A stretch of DNA of 64,000 bases, taken from the sequence record NC_027349.1. The stretch is one strand, 5' to 3'. A program made the position numbers and the translations under genes. Source of the DNA: Escherichia phage HY01. The first letter of the stretch is position 1. Each line of letters opens with the position of its first letter. The notes below the pieces were generated by a model. The model made no database searches and had not been told where the DNA came from. It was given only the letters and a program-made list of their open reading frames with translations. Below are positions 38,537-47,224 of the stretch, in pieces.

Positions 38537-40124
<1,588 letters not shown>

Positions 40125-40151
40125 AATAAAATGGGCCTTGCGGCCCACTCC

Positions 40152-41330
40152 TTAAAAATATTTTTTAAAACTCATCATAACTTTATCATCAACATCATTA
40201 TCAATCTGTGCTACAAGATAAGATGACAGTTCTACTTCTTGTGGCGCGGATTGAACATTATCAGAATTAAGGTATTCACGAATCCAAGGATACGGGTGTT
40301 TAACCGGAGCATCGGTAATTGGGCATGGAAGACCACACTGTTTCATACGAGATACAGTTAAGTAATCAATAAAGCTCCACATGCTATTTGTATTTAATCC
40401 AGGAACATCGCCATCTTTAAATAAATGAACTGCCCAGTCTTTTTCTTGACGGTTAACTTCCATGAAAATATCAACTGCTTCTTGTTCACACTCTTGAGCA
40501 ATTTTAACCCATTCATCACCGTCAGTGCCAAGTTGAAGTTGACGAATAATATATTGAGTGCCTTTAAGATGAAGTTGTTCATCACGTGCAATGAACTTCA
40601 TAATCTTGGCATTACCTTCCATGATTTCCATGTTCTTATGGAAGTTAAAGGTACATGCGAAAGATACATAAAAACGAATAGCTTCCAATGCATTGATTAC
40701 ATGGAGGCAAAGATAAAGAGATTTCATTAGTGCTCGTTTAGCTTCGGCTTCTTGTTTAATAGCTCGATTTAAACGAAAATCAGCATCAGGAGATTCTTTA
40801 GCTAGTTCTACAAATTCTTTAGCATTTTCCCATTCACGGGTCTTCTTAAGAACATCATCGTAATAGCGACCAATGGACTCAGCGCGTTTCATAATATCTT
40901 CATCTAATACAATCTCATCAAATACCTTTGACGGATCAGTATAAAGATTTCGCATGATATGGGTATATGAACGGCTGTGAATAGTTTCACTAAAAGTCCA
41001 TGTAGCAACCCACGTATCAAGGCTTGGGTCTGAAATTAACGACATAAGTACAGCAGACGGTGCACGACCCTGAATGCTATCCAAAAGTGATTGATACTTC
41101 AGGTTATTAGTAAAAATATCTTGCTGATACTGAGGAAGCTTGTTAAATTGTGCAGCATCCATCATTAAGTTTACTTCTTCAGGACGCCAGAAAAATGACA
41201 ACTGCTTTTCGGTTAAATCTTCAAAAACTTTATGACGTTGAATATCATAACGCGCAATACCAAGACCTGATCCGAAGAACATAGGTTCTTTTAAAACATC
41301 AACTGGATTTGTATTAAAAACTGTGCTCAT
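40152..41330 (-). CDS. nrdB: Ribonucleotide reductase small (beta) subunit, uninterrupted (392 aa)
   Basis: Di-iron ligand helices (EAIRFY, ARDEQLH); contiguous ORF, no intron. Confidence 0.9.
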   Translation of the reverse strand: MSTVFNTNPVDVLKEPMFFGSGLGIARYDIQRHKVFEDLTEKQLSFFWRPEEVNLMMDAAQFNKLPQYQQDIFTNNLKYQSLLDSIQGRAPSAVLMSLISDPSLDTWVATWTFSETIHSRSYTHIMRNLYTDPSKVFDEIVLDEDIMKRAESIGRYYDDVLKKTREWENAKEFVELAKESPDADFRLNRAIKQEAEAKRALMKSLYLCLHVINALEAIRFYVSFACTFNFHKNMEIMEGNAKIMKFIARDEQLHLKGTQYIIRQLQLGTDGDEWVKIAQECEQEAVDIFMEVNRQEKDWAVHLFKDGDVPGLNTNSMWSFIDYLTVSRMKQCGLPCPITDAPVKHPYPWIREYLNSDNVQSAPQEVELSSYLVAQIDNDVDDKVMMSFKKYF

Positions 41331-41381
41331 AAATTTTCCGCTTAGTTAATAGATAGTGACTCGTCCGTGAGTCAAATTATA

Positions 41382-42371
41382 TCATAATTTACAGGATGAA
41401 CAATCTTCAGCTTTTGGAGTTTCTATTTCATAATCATCAGTACCAGAACCGTCGCGGGTATTATGATAATAGAAATTTTTTCCGCCAAAATACCAAAAGT
41501 ACAAAAGGTCATCAATCATTACAGACATTGGAACCTTTCCTTTTGGAAAAATCTGCGGGTCATAATATGTATTCGCTGAAGCTGATTGACATACCCATTT
41601 CAGCATAATAGCTACCTGCGTAAGATAAGGTTTATTACCTTTCTTAGCTAATTTCCATGTATAATCATAGAGGTCTATGTTATGTTCAATATTGGGCACG
41701 ACTTGATTAAAGGAACCCTCTTTTGATTCTTTAACCGAGACTGGTCCACGTGGAGGCTCGATGCCGTTTGTACTGTTAGAAACTTGGGAAGATGACTCAC
41801 ATGGCATAAGTGCTGATAATGTGCTATTACGGATGCCAAAGAGCTTAAGGTCTTCCCGCAGCTCCGACCAGTCACAAACGTATTTTGGAGCTGCGATTTG
41901 GTCAATCTTTTTATTGTACCAGTCGATAGGTAATTCGCCTCGAGACCAACGAGTGTCTGAATAATATTCGCAAGGTCCTTTTTCTTTGGCGAGCTTAATG
42001 GATGCTTTAATGAGCCCATACTGTAATCTCTCAAATAGTTCATGTGTTAAATCGTTAGCATCTTCATAAGAAGCAAAGTTACTTGCCAGCCAAGCTGCAT
42101 AGTTAGTAACACCTACGCCAAGGTTTCGACGCTTTTTAGCTTTTTCTGCTTCAGGAACTGGATATCCTTGGTAATCCAAAAGATTATCAAGAGCGCGAAC
42201 TTGAACTTCTGCCAATTCATTAATTTTATCTTGGTCTTGCCAATCGAAGTTATCTAGCACAAATGCAGAGAGAGTGCAGAGGCCCACTTCACCTTTGTTT
42301 TCAATAACTTGTATTGTTGTATACTCATCATCTTCGTAAAATTCATCTACAAATTCATAATCAATATTCAT
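41382..42371 (-). CDS. nrdA: Ribonucleotide reductase large subunit, C-terminal fragment (329 aa)
   Basis: Contains GEVGLCTLSAF class I RNR region and C-terminal Cys pair; own ATG overlapping HNH stop. Confidence 0.8.
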   Translation of the reverse strand: MNIDYEFVDEFYEDDEYTTIQVIENKGEVGLCTLSAFVLDNFDWQDQDKINELAEVQVRALDNLLDYQGYPVPEAEKAKKRRNLGVGVTNYAAWLASNFASYEDANDLTHELFERLQYGLIKASIKLAKEKGPCEYYSDTRWSRGELPIDWYNKKIDQIAAPKYVCDWSELREDLKLFGIRNSTLSALMPCESSSQVSNSTNGIEPPRGPVSVKESKEGSFNQVVPNIEHNIDLYDYTWKLAKKGNKPYLTQVAIMLKWVCQSASANTYYDPQIFPKGKVPMSVMIDDLLYFWYFGGKNFYYHNTRDGSGTDDYEIETPKAEDCSSCKL

Positions 42372-43071
42372 TTAATTCTTCTACCTTTTTTCGAGATATT
42401 CCTAGAGCTTTAGATGCTCGATGTATTGATTGATATTCTATACCGTTTATTTTTACAGCAATTAAGTTATGGGGTTTTAATCCCTTTGGATGAGGTTTAC
42501 TGACGTATTCTTGATTATCGTTTTCAGAGATATTATCAAGCTTTCGACACTTAAAGCCTTTATGTTGAGACCTTTTGCCTTTGCATACGGCCGACATTGC
42601 CGAAGCATTGAGTGAATGTAGTTCGCAAAATTCTCTTAGGCCTTTATGGATTTCTTCATGACCGTCCGGGAAAGTAAATACCCAAGTTGTTTGAAGTTTT
42701 TCTCTATGCTCGTCAGTTACCGGAATACCTTTGTTCCAAGCTGGTTTGCCTTTATTATTTTCAGATACAGAAATAGCCAATTTTCTTCTAAGCCACCCAT
42801 GGCGTTTATTGGTGTTCTTTCGTTCAATATTATCTTCAGAATAAACACACATCATATTAGCGGCAAATACCAATTTATGATTATCTGGATATATCTTTAC
42901 TAATAATTGATGAGCTATGTAATGCTCTTCGGGTGTCAAATCTACCAGGTTTTCCTTTGTATCAGAACCACCAATACACAGAGGTATAATATGGTGTGAT
43001 TCGGTATAGCAATCTAATTTTCTGTTCTTAGCTTTAGAAATAAGGTTATTGTAAATTTTAGAATAATCCAT
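42361..43071 (-). CDS. HNH homing endonuclease (236 aa) inserted within nrdA
   Basis: HNH motif ESHHIIPLCIGGSDTKENLVDLTPEEHYIAH; C-terminal HTH-like region. Confidence 0.8.
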   Translation of the reverse strand: MDYSKIYNNLISKAKNRKLDCYTESHHIIPLCIGGSDTKENLVDLTPEEHYIAHQLLVKIYPDNHKLVFAANMMCVYSEDNIERKNTNKRHGWLRRKLAISVSENNKGKPAWNKGIPVTDEHREKLQTTWVFTFPDGHEEIHKGLREFCELHSLNASAMSAVCKGKRSQHKGFKCRKLDNISENDNQEYVSKPHPKGLKPHNLIAVKINGIEYQSIHRASKALGISRKKVEELNEY

Positions 43072-43116
43072 AACTTTTCCTCTTGTTATGGATTATTTAT
43101 TAACGGTCTGTGTACT
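42361..43116 (-). mobile_element. Homing-endonuclease gene insertion splitting nrdA
   Basis: Interval between the conserved nrdA N- and C-parts, occupied almost entirely by the HNH ORF. Confidence 0.65.
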
Positions 43117-44550
43117 TTATTTGCTTTGAATTATACCGCCAGGATTAGCTTCATAAAACTTAGCTACATCCGACTTCTTAATTTTGATTAAACGGGTTTG
43201 TTGGCTATTCACATCATTTGTTGGAATAGCAATTTCACAGCACAAATTACTCTGACGAATAGGTGCTTTTTCACGAATAAACGGAGTATAGTTATTCGTA
43301 TTATCAATGAACTGCACATAAATCCTTGCTGTTCCTGATCGTTCAGTCATGAGTAGTTCAAACAGTTCACGTGCTTTAATACGCTTTTTACGAATATTAG
43401 GGTCTTTTTCTGCGGCTTCGTATAATTCACGGAAACGGTCTTGGTCTTTAAAATAAGAATAATAAAGCTCGCCACCCATTTCATGCGGACTGAACAAAGT
43501 AATGTAGTCGTTCTTTCCAAAACGTTCCATCATCAAATCATTCAGCTGGACGCCATAATCCATATGACGGATACGGTTTTCTTCTACGCCTTTGTTATTT
43601 TTCAAAACGAGAAGATTTTCAACTTCCAAATGCCAAATAGGATAATAAGCAGTAGCAGCGCCGCCACGAATTCCGCCCTGTGAACACGATTTAACAGCAG
43701 TCTGAAAATGTTTCCAAAAAGGAATAACACCAGTATGACGCACTTCACCTGTGCCAATCTTAGAACCTTCGGCACGAATCATACCAACGTTAATACCAAT
43801 TCCAGCGCGTTTGGAGATATATTCAACAATTGAAGCAGAAGCCTTATTGATAGACTTCAGCGAATCACCTGCCTCAATAACAACACATGAACTAAACTGC
43901 CGAGTTGGAGTACGACAACCAGCCATAATAGGAGTTGGCAATGAAATCTGTCGAGTAGATACTGCTTCATAAAAACGAATAACATGTTTTAATCTATCAA
44001 CAGGTTCATCTTGATGCAATGCCATTCCAATAGTCATAAATGCAAACTGTGGAGTTTCATAAATTTGACCGGTGGTTTTATCTTTAACTAGATATTTTTC
44101 TTTTAATTGCATCGCCCCGGAATAAGTAAATTCCATATCCCGCTCGTGCTTAATTTTTGATTCTAAAAATGTAATTTCTTCTGCTGAATATTTTGACAAC
44201 AGTTCAGGGTCGTATTTACCTTCATTTACACAGTAAGAAATATGGTCAATAAATGAACGTGGTTCATACTGACCGTAAACATGCTTACGAAGAGCGAACA
44301 TTAAACAGCGCGCAGCTACGTATTGATAATCAGGCTCTTCAACTGAAATAGAATTCGCAGCAGCCTTAATTACAATAGTTTGAATGTCATCAGTGGTCAT
44401 TCCATCACGGAGATATGATTTAATATTTTCATATAATTCATAAGGATCTACAGATGTTCCTTCAGCTGCCCAAGATAAAACTTTAATAATTTTTTGCGGG
44501 TCAAAGCTTTGAGAAACACCACTACTTTTGATAACATTAATTAATTGCAT
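43117..44550 (-). CDS. nrdA: Ribonucleotide reductase large subunit, N-terminal fragment (477 aa)
   Basis: ATP-cone N-terminus, class I RNR active-site region ending SNLCCEIAIPTND, then 31 non-conserved residues and stop. Confidence 0.85.
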   Translation of the reverse strand: MQLINVIKSSGVSQSFDPQKIIKVLSWAAEGTSVDPYELYENIKSYLRDGMTTDDIQTIVIKAAANSISVEEPDYQYVAARCLMFALRKHVYGQYEPRSFIDHISYCVNEGKYDPELLSKYSAEEITFLESKIKHERDMEFTYSGAMQLKEKYLVKDKTTGQIYETPQFAFMTIGMALHQDEPVDRLKHVIRFYEAVSTRQISLPTPIMAGCRTPTRQFSSCVVIEAGDSLKSINKASASIVEYISKRAGIGINVGMIRAEGSKIGTGEVRHTGVIPFWKHFQTAVKSCSQGGIRGGAATAYYPIWHLEVENLLVLKNNKGVEENRIRHMDYGVQLNDLMMERFGKNDYITLFSPHEMGGELYYSYFKDQDRFRELYEAAEKDPNIRKKRIKARELFELLMTERSGTARIYVQFIDNTNNYTPFIREKAPIRQSNLCCEIAIPTNDVNSQQTRLIKIKKSDVAKFYEANPGGIIQSK

Positions 44551-44867
44551 AAGTCCTCAACTTGAAAATCGTCTTTAAACAATCGGTTAACTATATGAGC
44601 TATTATATCACCATGACACGGCTTTGGTTTACATGTGCATCCTAGCCTCATTCCACGTAAAGGTTCTAAATGTGCTTTAGTTATTTCTCCGGATTTAATT
44701 CGACGTATAAAATCTTTTTTGAATAATTCAATGGCAGCCTCCCGGCTGCCAGCATCTTTACCGACGTAATTTCCCCAAAATGTACCACGGTGAATATTAA
44801 CATCAAAGTCGGATTTATATTTATTCACTACTTGGCATAGACGGCCCGCGCGGTGATAATTCGTCAT
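44541..44867 (-). CDS. Small Cys-motif protein, 108 aa
   Basis: ORF overlapping nrdA start; C-terminal [11 protein letters not shown] motif. Confidence 0.5.
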
Positions 44868-45084
44868 ATTGTTTTTCCGTTAAAACAGTAATATCATAAT
44901 AACAATCTGAAGAAGTTTTAACCGTAGAAATTTTATTATCAAAATACTCACGAGTCATTTTATGAGTATAATATTTTTTGCCATAAATTATAATAGGCTG
45001 ATTTGGTCCTGGAACTTCTAACTCGCTTGGGTTAGGAAGTGTAAAAAGAACTACACCAGAAGTATCTTTAAATCGTAAAATCAT
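44821..45084 (-). CDS. Hypothetical protein, 87 aa
   Basis: ORF; overlaps next ORF by 47 nt. Confidence 0.4.
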
Positions 45085-45107
45085 ATATCCTCACAATTAA
45101 TAATTAA

Positions 45108-45968
45108 TTACACCGCCATTTTTCCTTTAATAGGAGGGTGAGATACATAGTTGTTAAGAACAAAATTATGCGGCTTTGCGAATTGACTCAACCAAAATAC
45201 CTGTGATTCTGTGTCCCATTCATCAAATTCATCTGGAAATTTTAATTGTAATTCGCATAAATCCATAGGTTCACGACGTAAAATTTCTTTACATTGTTCT
45301 ACGTGATTCATATAGATATGAGTATTACCACCAGAAAATATCAAATCTCCTGGAATAAGATTACACATCTTAGCTACAATATGAACTAATGCAGCATATG
45401 ATGCAATGTTGAATGGCAAGCCCAAGAACACGTCAACACTTCTTTGATACCACTGCAAATCCAAATAGCCATTACGCACATTAAACTGATAGAACATATG
45501 ACAAGGCGGTAATGCCATATATTTAAGTTCAGCTGGATTCCATGCAGAAACAATTTGACGCCTATCATTCGGCAGTTTTTTAATACGATCAATAACTTCT
45601 ATAATTTGGTCTACACCGCCAAAATCACGCCATTGTTTTCCATAAATTGGACCAAGTTCACCACTATGATATCCTAAATCTTTTGCTTGATTTTCGTAAT
45701 TTTCATCCCAGACTGTTTTGCCTTGAATTAATGAATCATGTTGAATTAATCGTAAATCATTGACATTTGTGCTTCCCGATAAAAACCATATTAGCTCAGC
45801 AATGCAAGCTTTCCAGGCGAGCTTCTTAGTTGTTACTGCAGGAAAACCTTTAGTTAAATCCCAGCGTAATTTAGTACCGAACAAAGCAATTGTTCCTGTG
45901 CCCGTTCGGTCATCGGTTTCATAGCCATTTTCAAAAATGTCTTTAATTAAATCTTGGTATTGTTTCAT
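45108..45968 (-). CDS. td: Thymidylate synthase, uninterrupted (286 aa)
   Basis: Conserved TS motifs (PCH, catalytic Cys region); contiguous, no intron. Confidence 0.9.
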   Translation of the reverse strand: MKQYQDLIKDIFENGYETDDRTGTGTIALFGTKLRWDLTKGFPAVTTKKLAWKACIAELIWFLSGSTNVNDLRLIQHDSLIQGKTVWDENYENQAKDLGYHSGELGPIYGKQWRDFGGVDQIIEVIDRIKKLPNDRRQIVSAWNPAELKYMALPPCHMFYQFNVRNGYLDLQWYQRSVDVFLGLPFNIASYAALVHIVAKMCNLIPGDLIFSGGNTHIYMNHVEQCKEILRREPMDLCELQLKFPDEFDEWDTESQVFWLSQFAKPHNFVLNNYVSHPPIKGKMAV

Positions 45969-46013
45969 TTAGTACCTTATATAAATTATAATACATTTTA
46001 TGAAGCTAAATAA

Positions 46014-46361
46014 TCAATACGGTTTAGCATCAAATTTTCTTTCAATTTCAGGCGTGAAATATAATTCTTTACCACGCTTGGAAAAGCGACCAATAATATG
46101 ATAATTATTCTCATCAAACGTGATATTGCCAATATCCATAGCTTTCAACCAAATATCGATATTTCTATCCAGTTTTATATCAAAATTCCAATACGGAGAA
46201 CTATTACCGAAAATACTGCAAGCGGATTCAGTGAAACAACTGCTATAAATCTTGTCTTTAGGAACTACTAATTGATAGACGCCTTTAATAAACTGAGGAC
46301 CCTGCCATTTTGGCTGTTTCGCGCCTTTTTCTAATAGAATAGGGTAATAATTAAAGTTCAT
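46014..46361 (-). CDS. Hypothetical protein, 115 aa, between frd and td
   Basis: ORF filling a 414-bp frd-td spacer. Confidence 0.5.
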   Translation of the reverse strand: MNFNYYPILLEKGAKQPKWQGPQFIKGVYQLVVPKDKIYSSCFTESACSIFGNSSPYWNFDIKLDRNIDIWLKAMDIGNITFDENNYHIIGRFSKRGKELYFTPEIERKFDAKPY

Positions 46362-46381
46362 ATTTTCTGCCGCGCGTTATT

Positions 46382-46969
<588 letters not shown>

Positions 46970-47224
46970 TCAAAACCCCCTTTCAATAAACCATTCAGTG
47001 GCTTTATTAGCATCAAAGAATAATTCTTCATATGTCTTTTCTTTGTTTTCAAAAACTGTCACACAAACACGTTGACAGTCTCCGCAGTATTCTTCTGACA
47101 TGCTCAAAGCGTCAGAAAACATTTCATTAAATTCATTTAAATCAGGATTATGTAATGCATTAAAAATTGCATAATCGAATTCATCATTCATAAATTCAAA
47201 TACAAAAATCATATTACCTCCCAC
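46970..47224 (-). CDS. Hypothetical protein, 84 aa
   Basis: ORF. Confidence 0.45.
   Translation of the reverse strand: MGGNMIFVFEFMNDEFDYAIFNALHNPDLNEFNEMFSDALSMSEEYCGDCQRVCVTVFENKEKTYEELFFDANKATEWFIERGF

Follow-up and report, generated by a model that had tools for sequence, protein, structure and literature searches.

An nrdA gene in two pieces around a MobE-type homing endonuclease gene in a T4-like coliphage

Organization of the nrdA locus

This analysis concerns nrdA, the gene that encodes the ribonucleotide reductase (RNR) large subunit and that in Escherichia phage HY01 (NC_027349.1) is divided by a gene for an HNH endonuclease. The window, i.e. the whole stretch of 64,000 nucleotides (nt) that was analyzed, shows 100% identity to the Tequatrovirus PEC04, an Escherichia phage, and PEC04 is the name used for the present locus and its type in comparisons between phages. 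The minus strand carries the block frd-td-nrdA-nrdB-denA that is usual in T4, with three entries of the list of open reading frames (ORFs) in the place of nrdA:

44550..43117, minus strand: nrdA-a, the N-terminal part of nrdA, 477 amino acids (aa)
43071..42361, minus strand: mobE-type HNH homing endonuclease gene, 236 aa
42371..41382, minus strand: nrdA-b, the C-terminal part of nrdA, 329 aa

A preliminary description of this DNA had already read nrdA as two ORFs around an HNH gene at these positions, as the ORF list and the sequence bear out; in GenBank, loci of this kind are annotated as two nrdA coding sequences (CDSs) and a homing endonuclease. The nrdA-a product comprises the ATP-cone, the all-alpha domain and that first half of the barrel in which the NLCCE active-site loop lies (Pfam: ATP-cone, Ribonuc_red_lgN, and positions 1-221 of Ribonuc_red_lgC). 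The nrdA-b product comprises the second half of the barrel, the cysteine in GLCTLSAF and the C-terminal CxxC (Pfam: Ribonuc_red_lgC, positions 219-523), with an acidic foreign head in front.

The stop codon of nrdA-a (TAA, 43119..43117) is followed by a second in-frame stop within the spacer, so that nrdA-a and the HNH ORF share a common frame with two stops between them; nrdA-b lies in a different frame. The HNH stop codon (TGA, 42363..42361) lies inside ATGAATATTGA, 8 nt past the ATG of nrdA-b, and an in-frame TAA (42374..42372) stands immediately 5' of that ATG; both the overlap and this TAA, described before, were found again in the sequence. In the sequence, stop or start codon and ribosome-binding site are separate for each part of nrdA. 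The only non-coding part of the insert is a 45-nt spacer (43116..43072), the remaining sequence outside the HNH ORF, about 200 nt, encoding a tail on nrdA-a and a head on nrdA-b. An earlier figure of about 140 bp outside the HNH ORF was too low, since about 200 nt lie there between the homology breakpoints.

Insertion point and recoded flank

Homology to intact T4 nrdA reaches ...GTGAATAGCC (window 43203) and restarts at about 42293. These breakpoints come from the alignment to intact T4 nrdA that the preliminary description had envisaged for mapping the insertion. Identity to nrdA of both T4 and MLF4, the closest cassette-free relative found, ends abruptly after ...AATGATGTGAATAGCC at 43203. 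The tail therefore consists of the 28 residues after ...NDVNS, or 31 after ...ND, in agreement with the 31 non-conserved residues counted previously. The insertion site is the active-site barrel loop, with the catalytic NLCCE loop on one side and the GLCTL cysteine on the other, and the active-site cysteines are shared out over the two polypeptides: nrdA-a ends with ...NLCCEIAIPTNDVNS plus the tail, and nrdA-b carries ...GEVGLCTLSAF, with the cysteine at position 32 (position 31 in the split nrdA of phage Aeh1). Downstream of the insert, identity is again disturbed over a short block:

42234..42293, minus strand: recoded nrdA block, codons GEVGLCTLSAFVLDNFDWQD, with almost wholly synonymous differences from intact alleles

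The block holds 13 differences from T4 in 60 nt, compared with 0-3 per 30 nt downstream of it and 0-1 per 30 nt in the left flank, and the protein changes within it are limited to A452G and I454V; its un-recoded counterpart in T4 nrdA is GCTGAAATTGGATTGTGTACTCTCTCTGCATTCGTATTAGAT. It is also found in eight other cassette-bearing phages, where the sequence switches back to the host type at differing points. As read from these alignments, the variable switch-back points have the pattern of co-conversion tracts, which suggests a copy of the nrdA target that travels with the cassette and that the endonuclease would not cut. The recoded block is thus probably a cleavage-immune copy of the homing site. 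Taken together, the insert is very probably a free-standing HNH homing-endonuclease element of the MobE type, a cassette that spans about 0.96 kb, from 43203 to about 42234 of the window.

Distribution and recent spread of the cassette

Of 492 phage records matching the flanks, 33 contain the cassette. The carriers are phages of Escherichia, Shigella, Yersinia and Salmonella, and comprise several Tequatrovirus species and one Mosigvirus (JM17). Full-length relatives of the HNH protein in the protein database form a graded series of 51-67% identity, and all six that were looked up, on Logan/ENA contigs (L094-L099), are embedded in nrdA in a like manner. A DNA-pattern scan of metagenome contigs gave a seventh relative (L151). 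With the PEC04 type and Aeh1, the cassette is therefore present in at least nine lineages. Comparisons over eight lineages refer to the PEC04 type, L094-L099 and Aeh1; L151 was read separately and has the same tails. In a search of IMG/VR with the HNH alignment, Aeh1 was the sole full-length relative, and the other loci found, mostly intergenic mobE genes downstream of an intact nrdA, share the N-terminal HNH domain only.

The three ORFs are intact and of equal length in all nine PEC04-type phage alleles compared, and the whole locus is present with three intact ORFs in L094, L095, L097, L098, L151 and Aeh1; in L096 and L099 the contig ends inside the locus. Between PEC04 and F2 or JM17, the nrdA bodies are 67-85% identical and the part from about 43250 to 42750 is 98-100% identical. 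Synonymous diversity is lowest in the tail (0.02), higher in the HNH gene (0.17) and highest in the nrdA flanks (0.35-0.38). Such near-identity of the cassette in diverged nrdA backgrounds indicates horizontal spread.

More than 100 clusters of intact, 754-aa NrdA share about 100% identity with residues 1-449 of nrdA-a; a query of protein clusters with the N-terminal part returned only near-identical T4-like NrdAs, and a search for homologous proteins with a 70-residue fragment gave a single candidate. By all these sequence comparisons the cassette is a recent arrival in otherwise ordinary alleles, given its near-identity across backgrounds, its low synonymous diversity and the unaltered nrdA-a body. 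The enzyme body itself shows no change that would accommodate the split, and a rescue of its function would therefore have to stem from the cassette.

The two tails

The cassette contributes an extension to each of the two polypeptides:

43120..43203, minus strand: C-terminal extension (CTE), the tail of nrdA-a, QQTRLIKIKKSDVAKFYEANPGGIIQSK, 28 aa, cassette-borne, missing from T4 and MLF4 nrdA
42294..42371, minus strand: N-terminal extension (NTE), the head of nrdA-b, MNIDYEFVDEFYEDDEYTTIQVIENK, 26 aa, cassette-borne, missing from intact nrdA

The 31-residue tail region of nrdA-a, counted from VNS (after ...PTND), has a net charge of +4, and the 30 residues ahead of LCTL in nrdA-b have a net charge of -9; in every lineage the tail is basic (+4 to +7) and the head acidic (-7 to -14). 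A core of the form [TK]xL[IVF]K[IV][KR]KxD/E[VI]xxF in the CTE and one of the form YE[IF]VxEFYEDxEYTT[ILV][EQ][VI] in the NTE are kept in all eight aligned lineages, including Aeh1, and also in L151. Between the window and Aeh1, LIKIKKSDVAKF aligns with LFKVKKSEVDKF in the CTE (in the longer alignment, ...PTNDVNSQQTRLIKIKKSDVAKF... with ...PTVPMGKKEKMLFKVKKSEVDKF...) and EFYEDDEYTTIQVI with EVYEDEEYTTVEIE in the NTE (longer, ...DEFYEDDEYTTIQVIENKGEVGLC with ...YEVYEDEEYTTVEIEVDVSEISLC), and in both the tails lie at the same distance after the conserved PT and before the conserved LC. Codon comparison gave a pN/pS of 0.30 for the CTE, at a pS of 0.82, and of 0.33 for the NTE, with synonymous sites near saturation. 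Mean identity over the eight lineages is 57% for the CTE core and 64% for the NTE core, beside 53% for the endonuclease and 64-69% for the adjoining enzyme body. From the conserved cores, the low pN/pS values and the constant charges across lineages, we conclude at the level of sequence that the tails are protein-coding, under selection and part of the mobile unit.

In a tblastn search of 50,697 phage records with each tail, matches were confined to the 33 cassette carriers. When residues 1-75 of nrdA-b were compared with 1.84 billion cluster representatives by phmmer, residues 1-17 stayed unaligned outside their own cluster. A degenerate DNA pattern for EDxEYTT found Aeh1 as its sole match in an nrdA context in IMG/VR, and a longer DNA pattern found one more cassette carrier, L151, in the metagenome collection. 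No fused or endonuclease-less nrdA allele with tail sequences was found in these tail and pattern searches. An intact NrdA with the tails as a continuous insert, as an ancestral or 'healed' allele, was considered and rejected on the same searches, which gave cassette carriers only.

The preliminary description had also seen an 'FYE...IQ' stretch on both flanks as a possible remnant of the target site. This was not upheld: the similarity is marginal in this phage, being reached by 253 of 5000 protein shuffles and 23 of 2000 DNA shuffles; relatives within the family do not keep the motif, and a profile comparison of the two tail families gave a probability of 0.5%.

The endonuclease

Along its entire length, C-terminal DNA-binding half included, the HNH protein aligns with MobE of Aeh1 (47.6% identity over 229 of 236 aa, E 2.5e-61), and its match to T4 MobE is limited to the N-terminal 126 residues (46% identity). 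It falls in PHROG 655 (E 2.8e-60), as does the annotated mobE of T4. In Pfam, I-HmuI_NUMOD-like is above the cut-off and HNH is weak, giving a layout of an N-terminal HNH nuclease followed by a NUMOD-like/I-TevI-like DNA-binding region. The motif HH..N..H is invariant and the dN/dS of the gene is 0.20 over nine phages; selection and intact motif are consistent with an active enzyme.

The NUMOD-like centre of the HNH gene (42750..42450, minus strand) occurs in two haplotypes of 70-82% DNA identity, the remaining cassette being 98-100% identical. The first is found in PEC04, RPN226 and, over most of the stretch, F2, the second in fPS-90, 236Ecol005PP, BYEP01, FL12, JM17 and FL33. To judge from the alignment, this looks like an exchange of modules inside the DNA-binding region.

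Expression signals

Predicted signals for the expression of the endonuclease are concentrated in the spacer, and one for nrdA-b lies within the endonuclease gene:

43072..43116, minus strand: spacer, 45 nt, with a GTACACAG box at 43115..43108
43101..43094, minus strand: late-promoter-like box AATAAATA in the spacer, overlapping the 5' arm of the hairpin
43084..43075, minus strand: Shine-Dalgarno sequence AAGAGGAAAA of the HNH gene, in the spacer
43062..43097, minus strand: RNA hairpin with a 13-bp stem and a 10-nt loop that contains the Shine-Dalgarno sequence; the HNH AUG and first codons lie in the 3' arm
42375..42392, minus strand: Shine-Dalgarno-like AAGGTAGAAG for nrdA-b, inside the 3' end of the HNH gene

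Of the 9 phages with the cassette that were compared, 8 share an identical spacer and BYEP01 has one 3-nt indel, and an ATAAATA-type box is found in the spacers of all eight lineages. The hairpin is predicted to fold with -13.8 kcal/mol (z -4.18), with 0 of 200 shuffles as stable. Equivalent hairpins are predicted in 7 of the 8 lineages, with z -4.96 in Aeh1 and z -3.75 to -6.2 in five of the six metagenomic relatives; that of L094 is weak. Their stems vary with compensating changes, GGAUUAUU pairing with AAUAAUCC here and GAACUAUUU with AAAUAGUUC in L095. For Aeh1 mobE, experiments by Gibb and Edgell (reviewed in PMC2988022) have demonstrated a hairpin that sequesters the ribosome-binding site and a late promoter, and by analogy the same hairpin/late-promoter logic is likely to apply here.

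An AGG or GAGG 9-16 nt upstream of the nrdA-b ATG is kept in all eight lineages, which suggests that nrdA-b initiates on its own; its translation is probably independent of that of the HNH gene, which matters since NrdA is needed early. Of the earlier proposal that nrdA-b is independently translated and coupled to the HNH gene, the first half is favoured and the second holds in part only.

Seven of the 8 lineages have a GTACA(C/T)A box right after the nrdA-a stop, close to the late-promoter-like box (spacers of the window, of L094-L099 and of L012, the split operon of Aeh1, compared); L099 has the variant GTGCATA. The box might serve as an operator or in RNA processing, an RNase E-like site having been reported in the mobE transcript of Aeh1.

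Neighbouring genes and other mobile elements

The gene for the partner subunit follows directly downstream of nrdA-b:

40152..41330, minus strand: nrdB, 392 aa, without an intron (ORF list, PEC04 annotation)

There is no mobE between nrdA and nrdB here (gap 41381..41331). Both the mobE gene and the nrdB intron that T4 has in the region downstream of its nrdA are missing. Unlike in T4, td (45968..45108, 286 aa) is free of an intron, as is nrdB (392 aa), and within this block the nrdA cassette is the sole mobile element of the present phage.

Other carriers have further insertions. BYEP01 has a group I intron in nrdB; an extra ORF lies between nrdA-b and nrdB in 236Ecol005PP, FL12, L094 and L099, and a GIY-YIG gene upstream of nrdA-a in RPN226 and L095. 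In L151 (7782..3770, minus strand; OEQO01000002.1, a 128-kb metagenome contig), nrdA has been invaded three times: nrdA-a has 758 aa with two in-frame mini-inteins, KSC|LTPNTLVW...VLTHN|CSQGG and NLC|LSGDSLVD...ILVHN|CLEI, and the gene is further split by a MobE-type cassette with the conserved tails, whose HNH protein is 67% identical to that of the window.

Proposed mechanism

By analogy with Aeh1, we consider it very probable that a MobE-type cassette has split nrdA and that the two pieces make up a functional enzyme. [quoted passage not shown] In cells infected with Aeh1, the separate polypeptides were found with their tails, and the holoenzyme was active (PMC3045599); deletion of the tails (32 residues of the CTE, 17 of the NTE) lowered activity about 2000-fold (Crona et al., PMC3045599). 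The CTE of the window corresponds to the 32 residues deleted in Aeh1 and the NTE to the 17. Extrapolated from these experiments, the polypeptides would be joined by neither RNA nor protein splicing, and NrdA-a and NrdA-b would assemble non-covalently, the tails being needed for a dimer of heterodimers, (NrdA-a/NrdA-b)2, and for binding of NrdB2 to give the active enzyme. On the long early and middle nrdA transcripts the hairpin would keep the endonuclease untranslated, if regulation is as in Aeh1, and short late transcripts without the 5' arm would allow it to be made. The pattern in the population suggests that the endonuclease then cuts the nrdA of co-infecting phages that lack the cassette, within or close to the un-recoded GLCTLSAFVLDNFD codons, and that repair copies the cassette in, with variable flanking tracts.

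Several points weigh against this interpretation. For this phage the case is built on sequence comparison. The nrdA of T4 is dispensable on wild-type hosts (it is listed as 'auxiliary'), so that intact ORFs alone are no proof that the split enzyme works. Much of the signal of purifying selection in the nrdA bodies predates the entry of the cassette. The cleavage site is a prediction from the recoded block. Finally, the T4 late promoter consensus is TATAAATA, which AATAAATA matches at 7 of 8 positions, not fully.

Alternative explanations

Inactivation of nrdA by the split, with the phage relying on the RNR of its host and the ORFs representing the undecayed halves of a recent pseudogene, would be in keeping with a T4 nrdA that is non-essential on wild-type hosts. 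The cassette is moreover young in these coliphages, and with an nrdA-a body still about 100% identical to intact alleles there has been little time for decay. We nevertheless regard this as unlikely: the three ORFs are intact in nine PEC04-type phages, in five metagenomic lineages with the whole locus and in Aeh1, whose homologous enzyme is fully active (PMC3045599), and the tails, which are meaningful only when the protein is split, are conserved as protein where the HNH genes are 43-69% identical.

The tails could also be the halves of a split intein that ligates the NrdA pieces by protein trans-splicing. RNR genes fractured by split inteins together with a homing endonuclease do exist, as at NLC|C in L033 and L038; Crona et al. 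raised, as a speculation, a degenerate intein that left the tails as its remnants; and the complementary charges of the tails resemble those of split inteins. At 28 and 26 aa, however, the tails are too short when compared with the N-intein halves of about 100 aa in L033 and L038; there is no Cys or Ser at the start of the tail and no HN-Cys/Ser/Thr at the end of the head, and stops between the parts interrupt the frame. Pfam gives RNR domains only in both halves, while the same scan finds Intein_splicing in the halves of L033 and L038, and hhalign of the tail families against the intein halves of L033 and L038 gave a probability below 0.3%. In addition, L151 has a true intein at NLC|C as well as the cassette, 10 codons apart, and the tails of Aeh1 persist in the mature proteins. 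A split intein is thus highly unlikely.

A group I intron with an HNH ORF, comparable to the T4 nrdB intron with I-TevIII, would restore a single nrdA mRNA by splicing; T-even phages have such introns in td, nrdB and nrdD, and the frames here could in principle be joined at codon boundaries. We rate this as extremely unlikely. No Rfam Intron_gpI match was obtained at E<=1 in 39000-47000, in a search that does recover known introns, those in nrdB of BYEP01 (68.7 bits) and of T4 (35.7 bits); the search for an intron core was thus negative with positive controls. Only 45 nt are non-coding; the other sequence outside the HNH ORF is conserved as protein in eight lineages (pN/pS about 0.3, with many synonymous changes), nrdA-b has its own ATG and Shine-Dalgarno sequence in every lineage, and both polypeptides of Aeh1 were found in infected cells, tails included (PMC3045599). 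The earlier preference for a split gene of the Aeh1 type over an intron is hence strengthened by the MobE homology, the homologous tails and the shared layout, and the relation to Aeh1 turns out to be homology and not mere analogy.

A sequencing or assembly artefact is practically negligible as an explanation, since 33 records, deposited independently and from several countries, share the structure, as do independent assemblies of metagenomes.

Significance

The kind of element described here is already known and its recurrence has been noted, as GenBank annotates such loci and a preprint remarks on conserved NTE and CTE sequences (see below). What is new are the exact boundaries, the recoded flank, the quantified conservation of the tails, the recent spread into unchanged T4-type alleles and the conserved start-codon hairpin. 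One cassette with one pair of tails recurs in at least nine lineages and moves among nrdA alleles in phages of E. coli, Shigella, Yersinia and Salmonella, which alters the evolutionary reading in that 'antidote' tails travel with a selfish gene. [quoted passage not shown] The locus also brings the rescue of a bisected barrel by tails, the cut site of MobE and the reach of co-conversion to the most tractable system, T4-like phages on E. coli K-12.

A more far-reaching proposal, to which we give slightly less than even weight, is that the tails, rather than being left over from a single accident in Aeh1, form a conserved module for two-piece reassembly that is owned by the mobile element, as part of a self-contained 'gene-splitting' cassette that would also comprise the endonuclease, its hairpin/late-promoter switch and the recoded immune target copy and that is currently spreading among T4-like coliphages, and that the tails alone make the split neutral, the enzyme body needing no adaptation. 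If so, the cassette would home into an active-site loop without an intron or intein, and the tails would be a natural, portable tag for split-protein complementation.

Comparison with known systems

The fractured RNR genes of Dassa et al. (2009, PMC2677866), with split inteins and a homing endonuclease, resemble the present locus in having nrdA in two genes with an endonuclease gene between them. They differ in their recognizable intein halves at NLC|C and, presumably, in the ligation of the protein, whereas the cassette of the window lies 10 codons downstream of the NLC|C intein site and is devoid of intein features. Fractured nrdA genes with split-intein halves at NLC|C around an endonuclease gene were seen in L033 (76..2501) and L038 (16..2457), and also in L040-L044; the endonuclease is of the HNH type in L033 and of the GIY-YIG type in L038, and a separate mobE-like gene lies downstream of nrdA. 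In L034 (144..2444, plus strand; IMG/VR 3300042400_000402), nrdA is split at the same barrel loop by a different ORF of 235 aa, whose N-terminus is GIY-YIG-like by eye, without a Pfam match, and the tails are unrelated to those of the cassette. The 40-aa N-tail of L034 (FKLSLDDGTEVLIPG...) has a weak match to the Pfam intein splicing model (E 0.016), for which reason L034 may be a degenerate split intein.

T4 MobE belongs to the same PHROG and has the same N-terminal HNH domain as the endonuclease described here, but its C-terminal DNA-binding half is unrelated, and from its intergenic position between nrdA and nrdB it splits no gene; it is missing from the window. In gene 39/mobA/gene 60 of T4, the split topoisomerase, a Mob-family HNH cassette splits an essential enzyme gene and adds C- and N-terminal extensions. 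According to a preprint (bioRxiv 10.1101/2022.08.31.505936), part of the target of this topoisomerase MobA element is replaced by a homologous recoded region, 'HomR', of which the recoded block at 42293..42234 is the analogue here. The T4 element differs in its target gene, in the unrelated C-terminal domain of MobA and in a translational bypass element that the window lacks. The same preprint contains an unpublished remark on insertions of MobE in which NTE and CTE are conserved and a supplementary 'MobE_split' alignment. The present locus fits this description; the preprint's text names no phages and gives no boundaries, tail analysis or regulation.

The closest counterpart is the 'genes-in-pieces' RNR of Aeh1, nrdA-a/mobE/nrdA-b (Friedrich et al. 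2007; Crona et al. 2011, PMC3045599; Gibb and Edgell 2007, 2009), which was presented as a one-off transposition accident, with tails that had no database match at the time (PMC3045599). The window differs from it in its T4-type nrdA in the usual place in td-nrdA-nrdB-denA, the Aeh1 operon being relocated. The td-nrdA.1-denA block of Aeh1 (L003, NC_005260 170000-219999) contains neither nrdA nor nrdB, and the split nrdA operon (L012) lies about 160 kb away, adjoining nrdD. The hairpin of the window buries the AUG and has the Shine-Dalgarno sequence in its loop, compared with the stem in Aeh1, and the distal halves of the tails differ. The cassette of the window is clearly young and spreading, as its flanks are identical to intact alleles, a youth that could not be seen for Aeh1. 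In both loci the insertion is at the same site in the barrel loop, with closely similar sizes in the window and in Aeh1 for nrdA-a (477 and 473 aa), the spacer (45 and 46 nt), the HNH or mobE gene (236 and 237 aa) and nrdA-b (329 and 323 aa). In both, the start of nrdA-b overlaps the end of the endonuclease gene and a hairpin spans the translation start of the endonuclease together with a late-promoter-like box, and the endonucleases are orthologous and the basic CTE and acidic NTE homologous.

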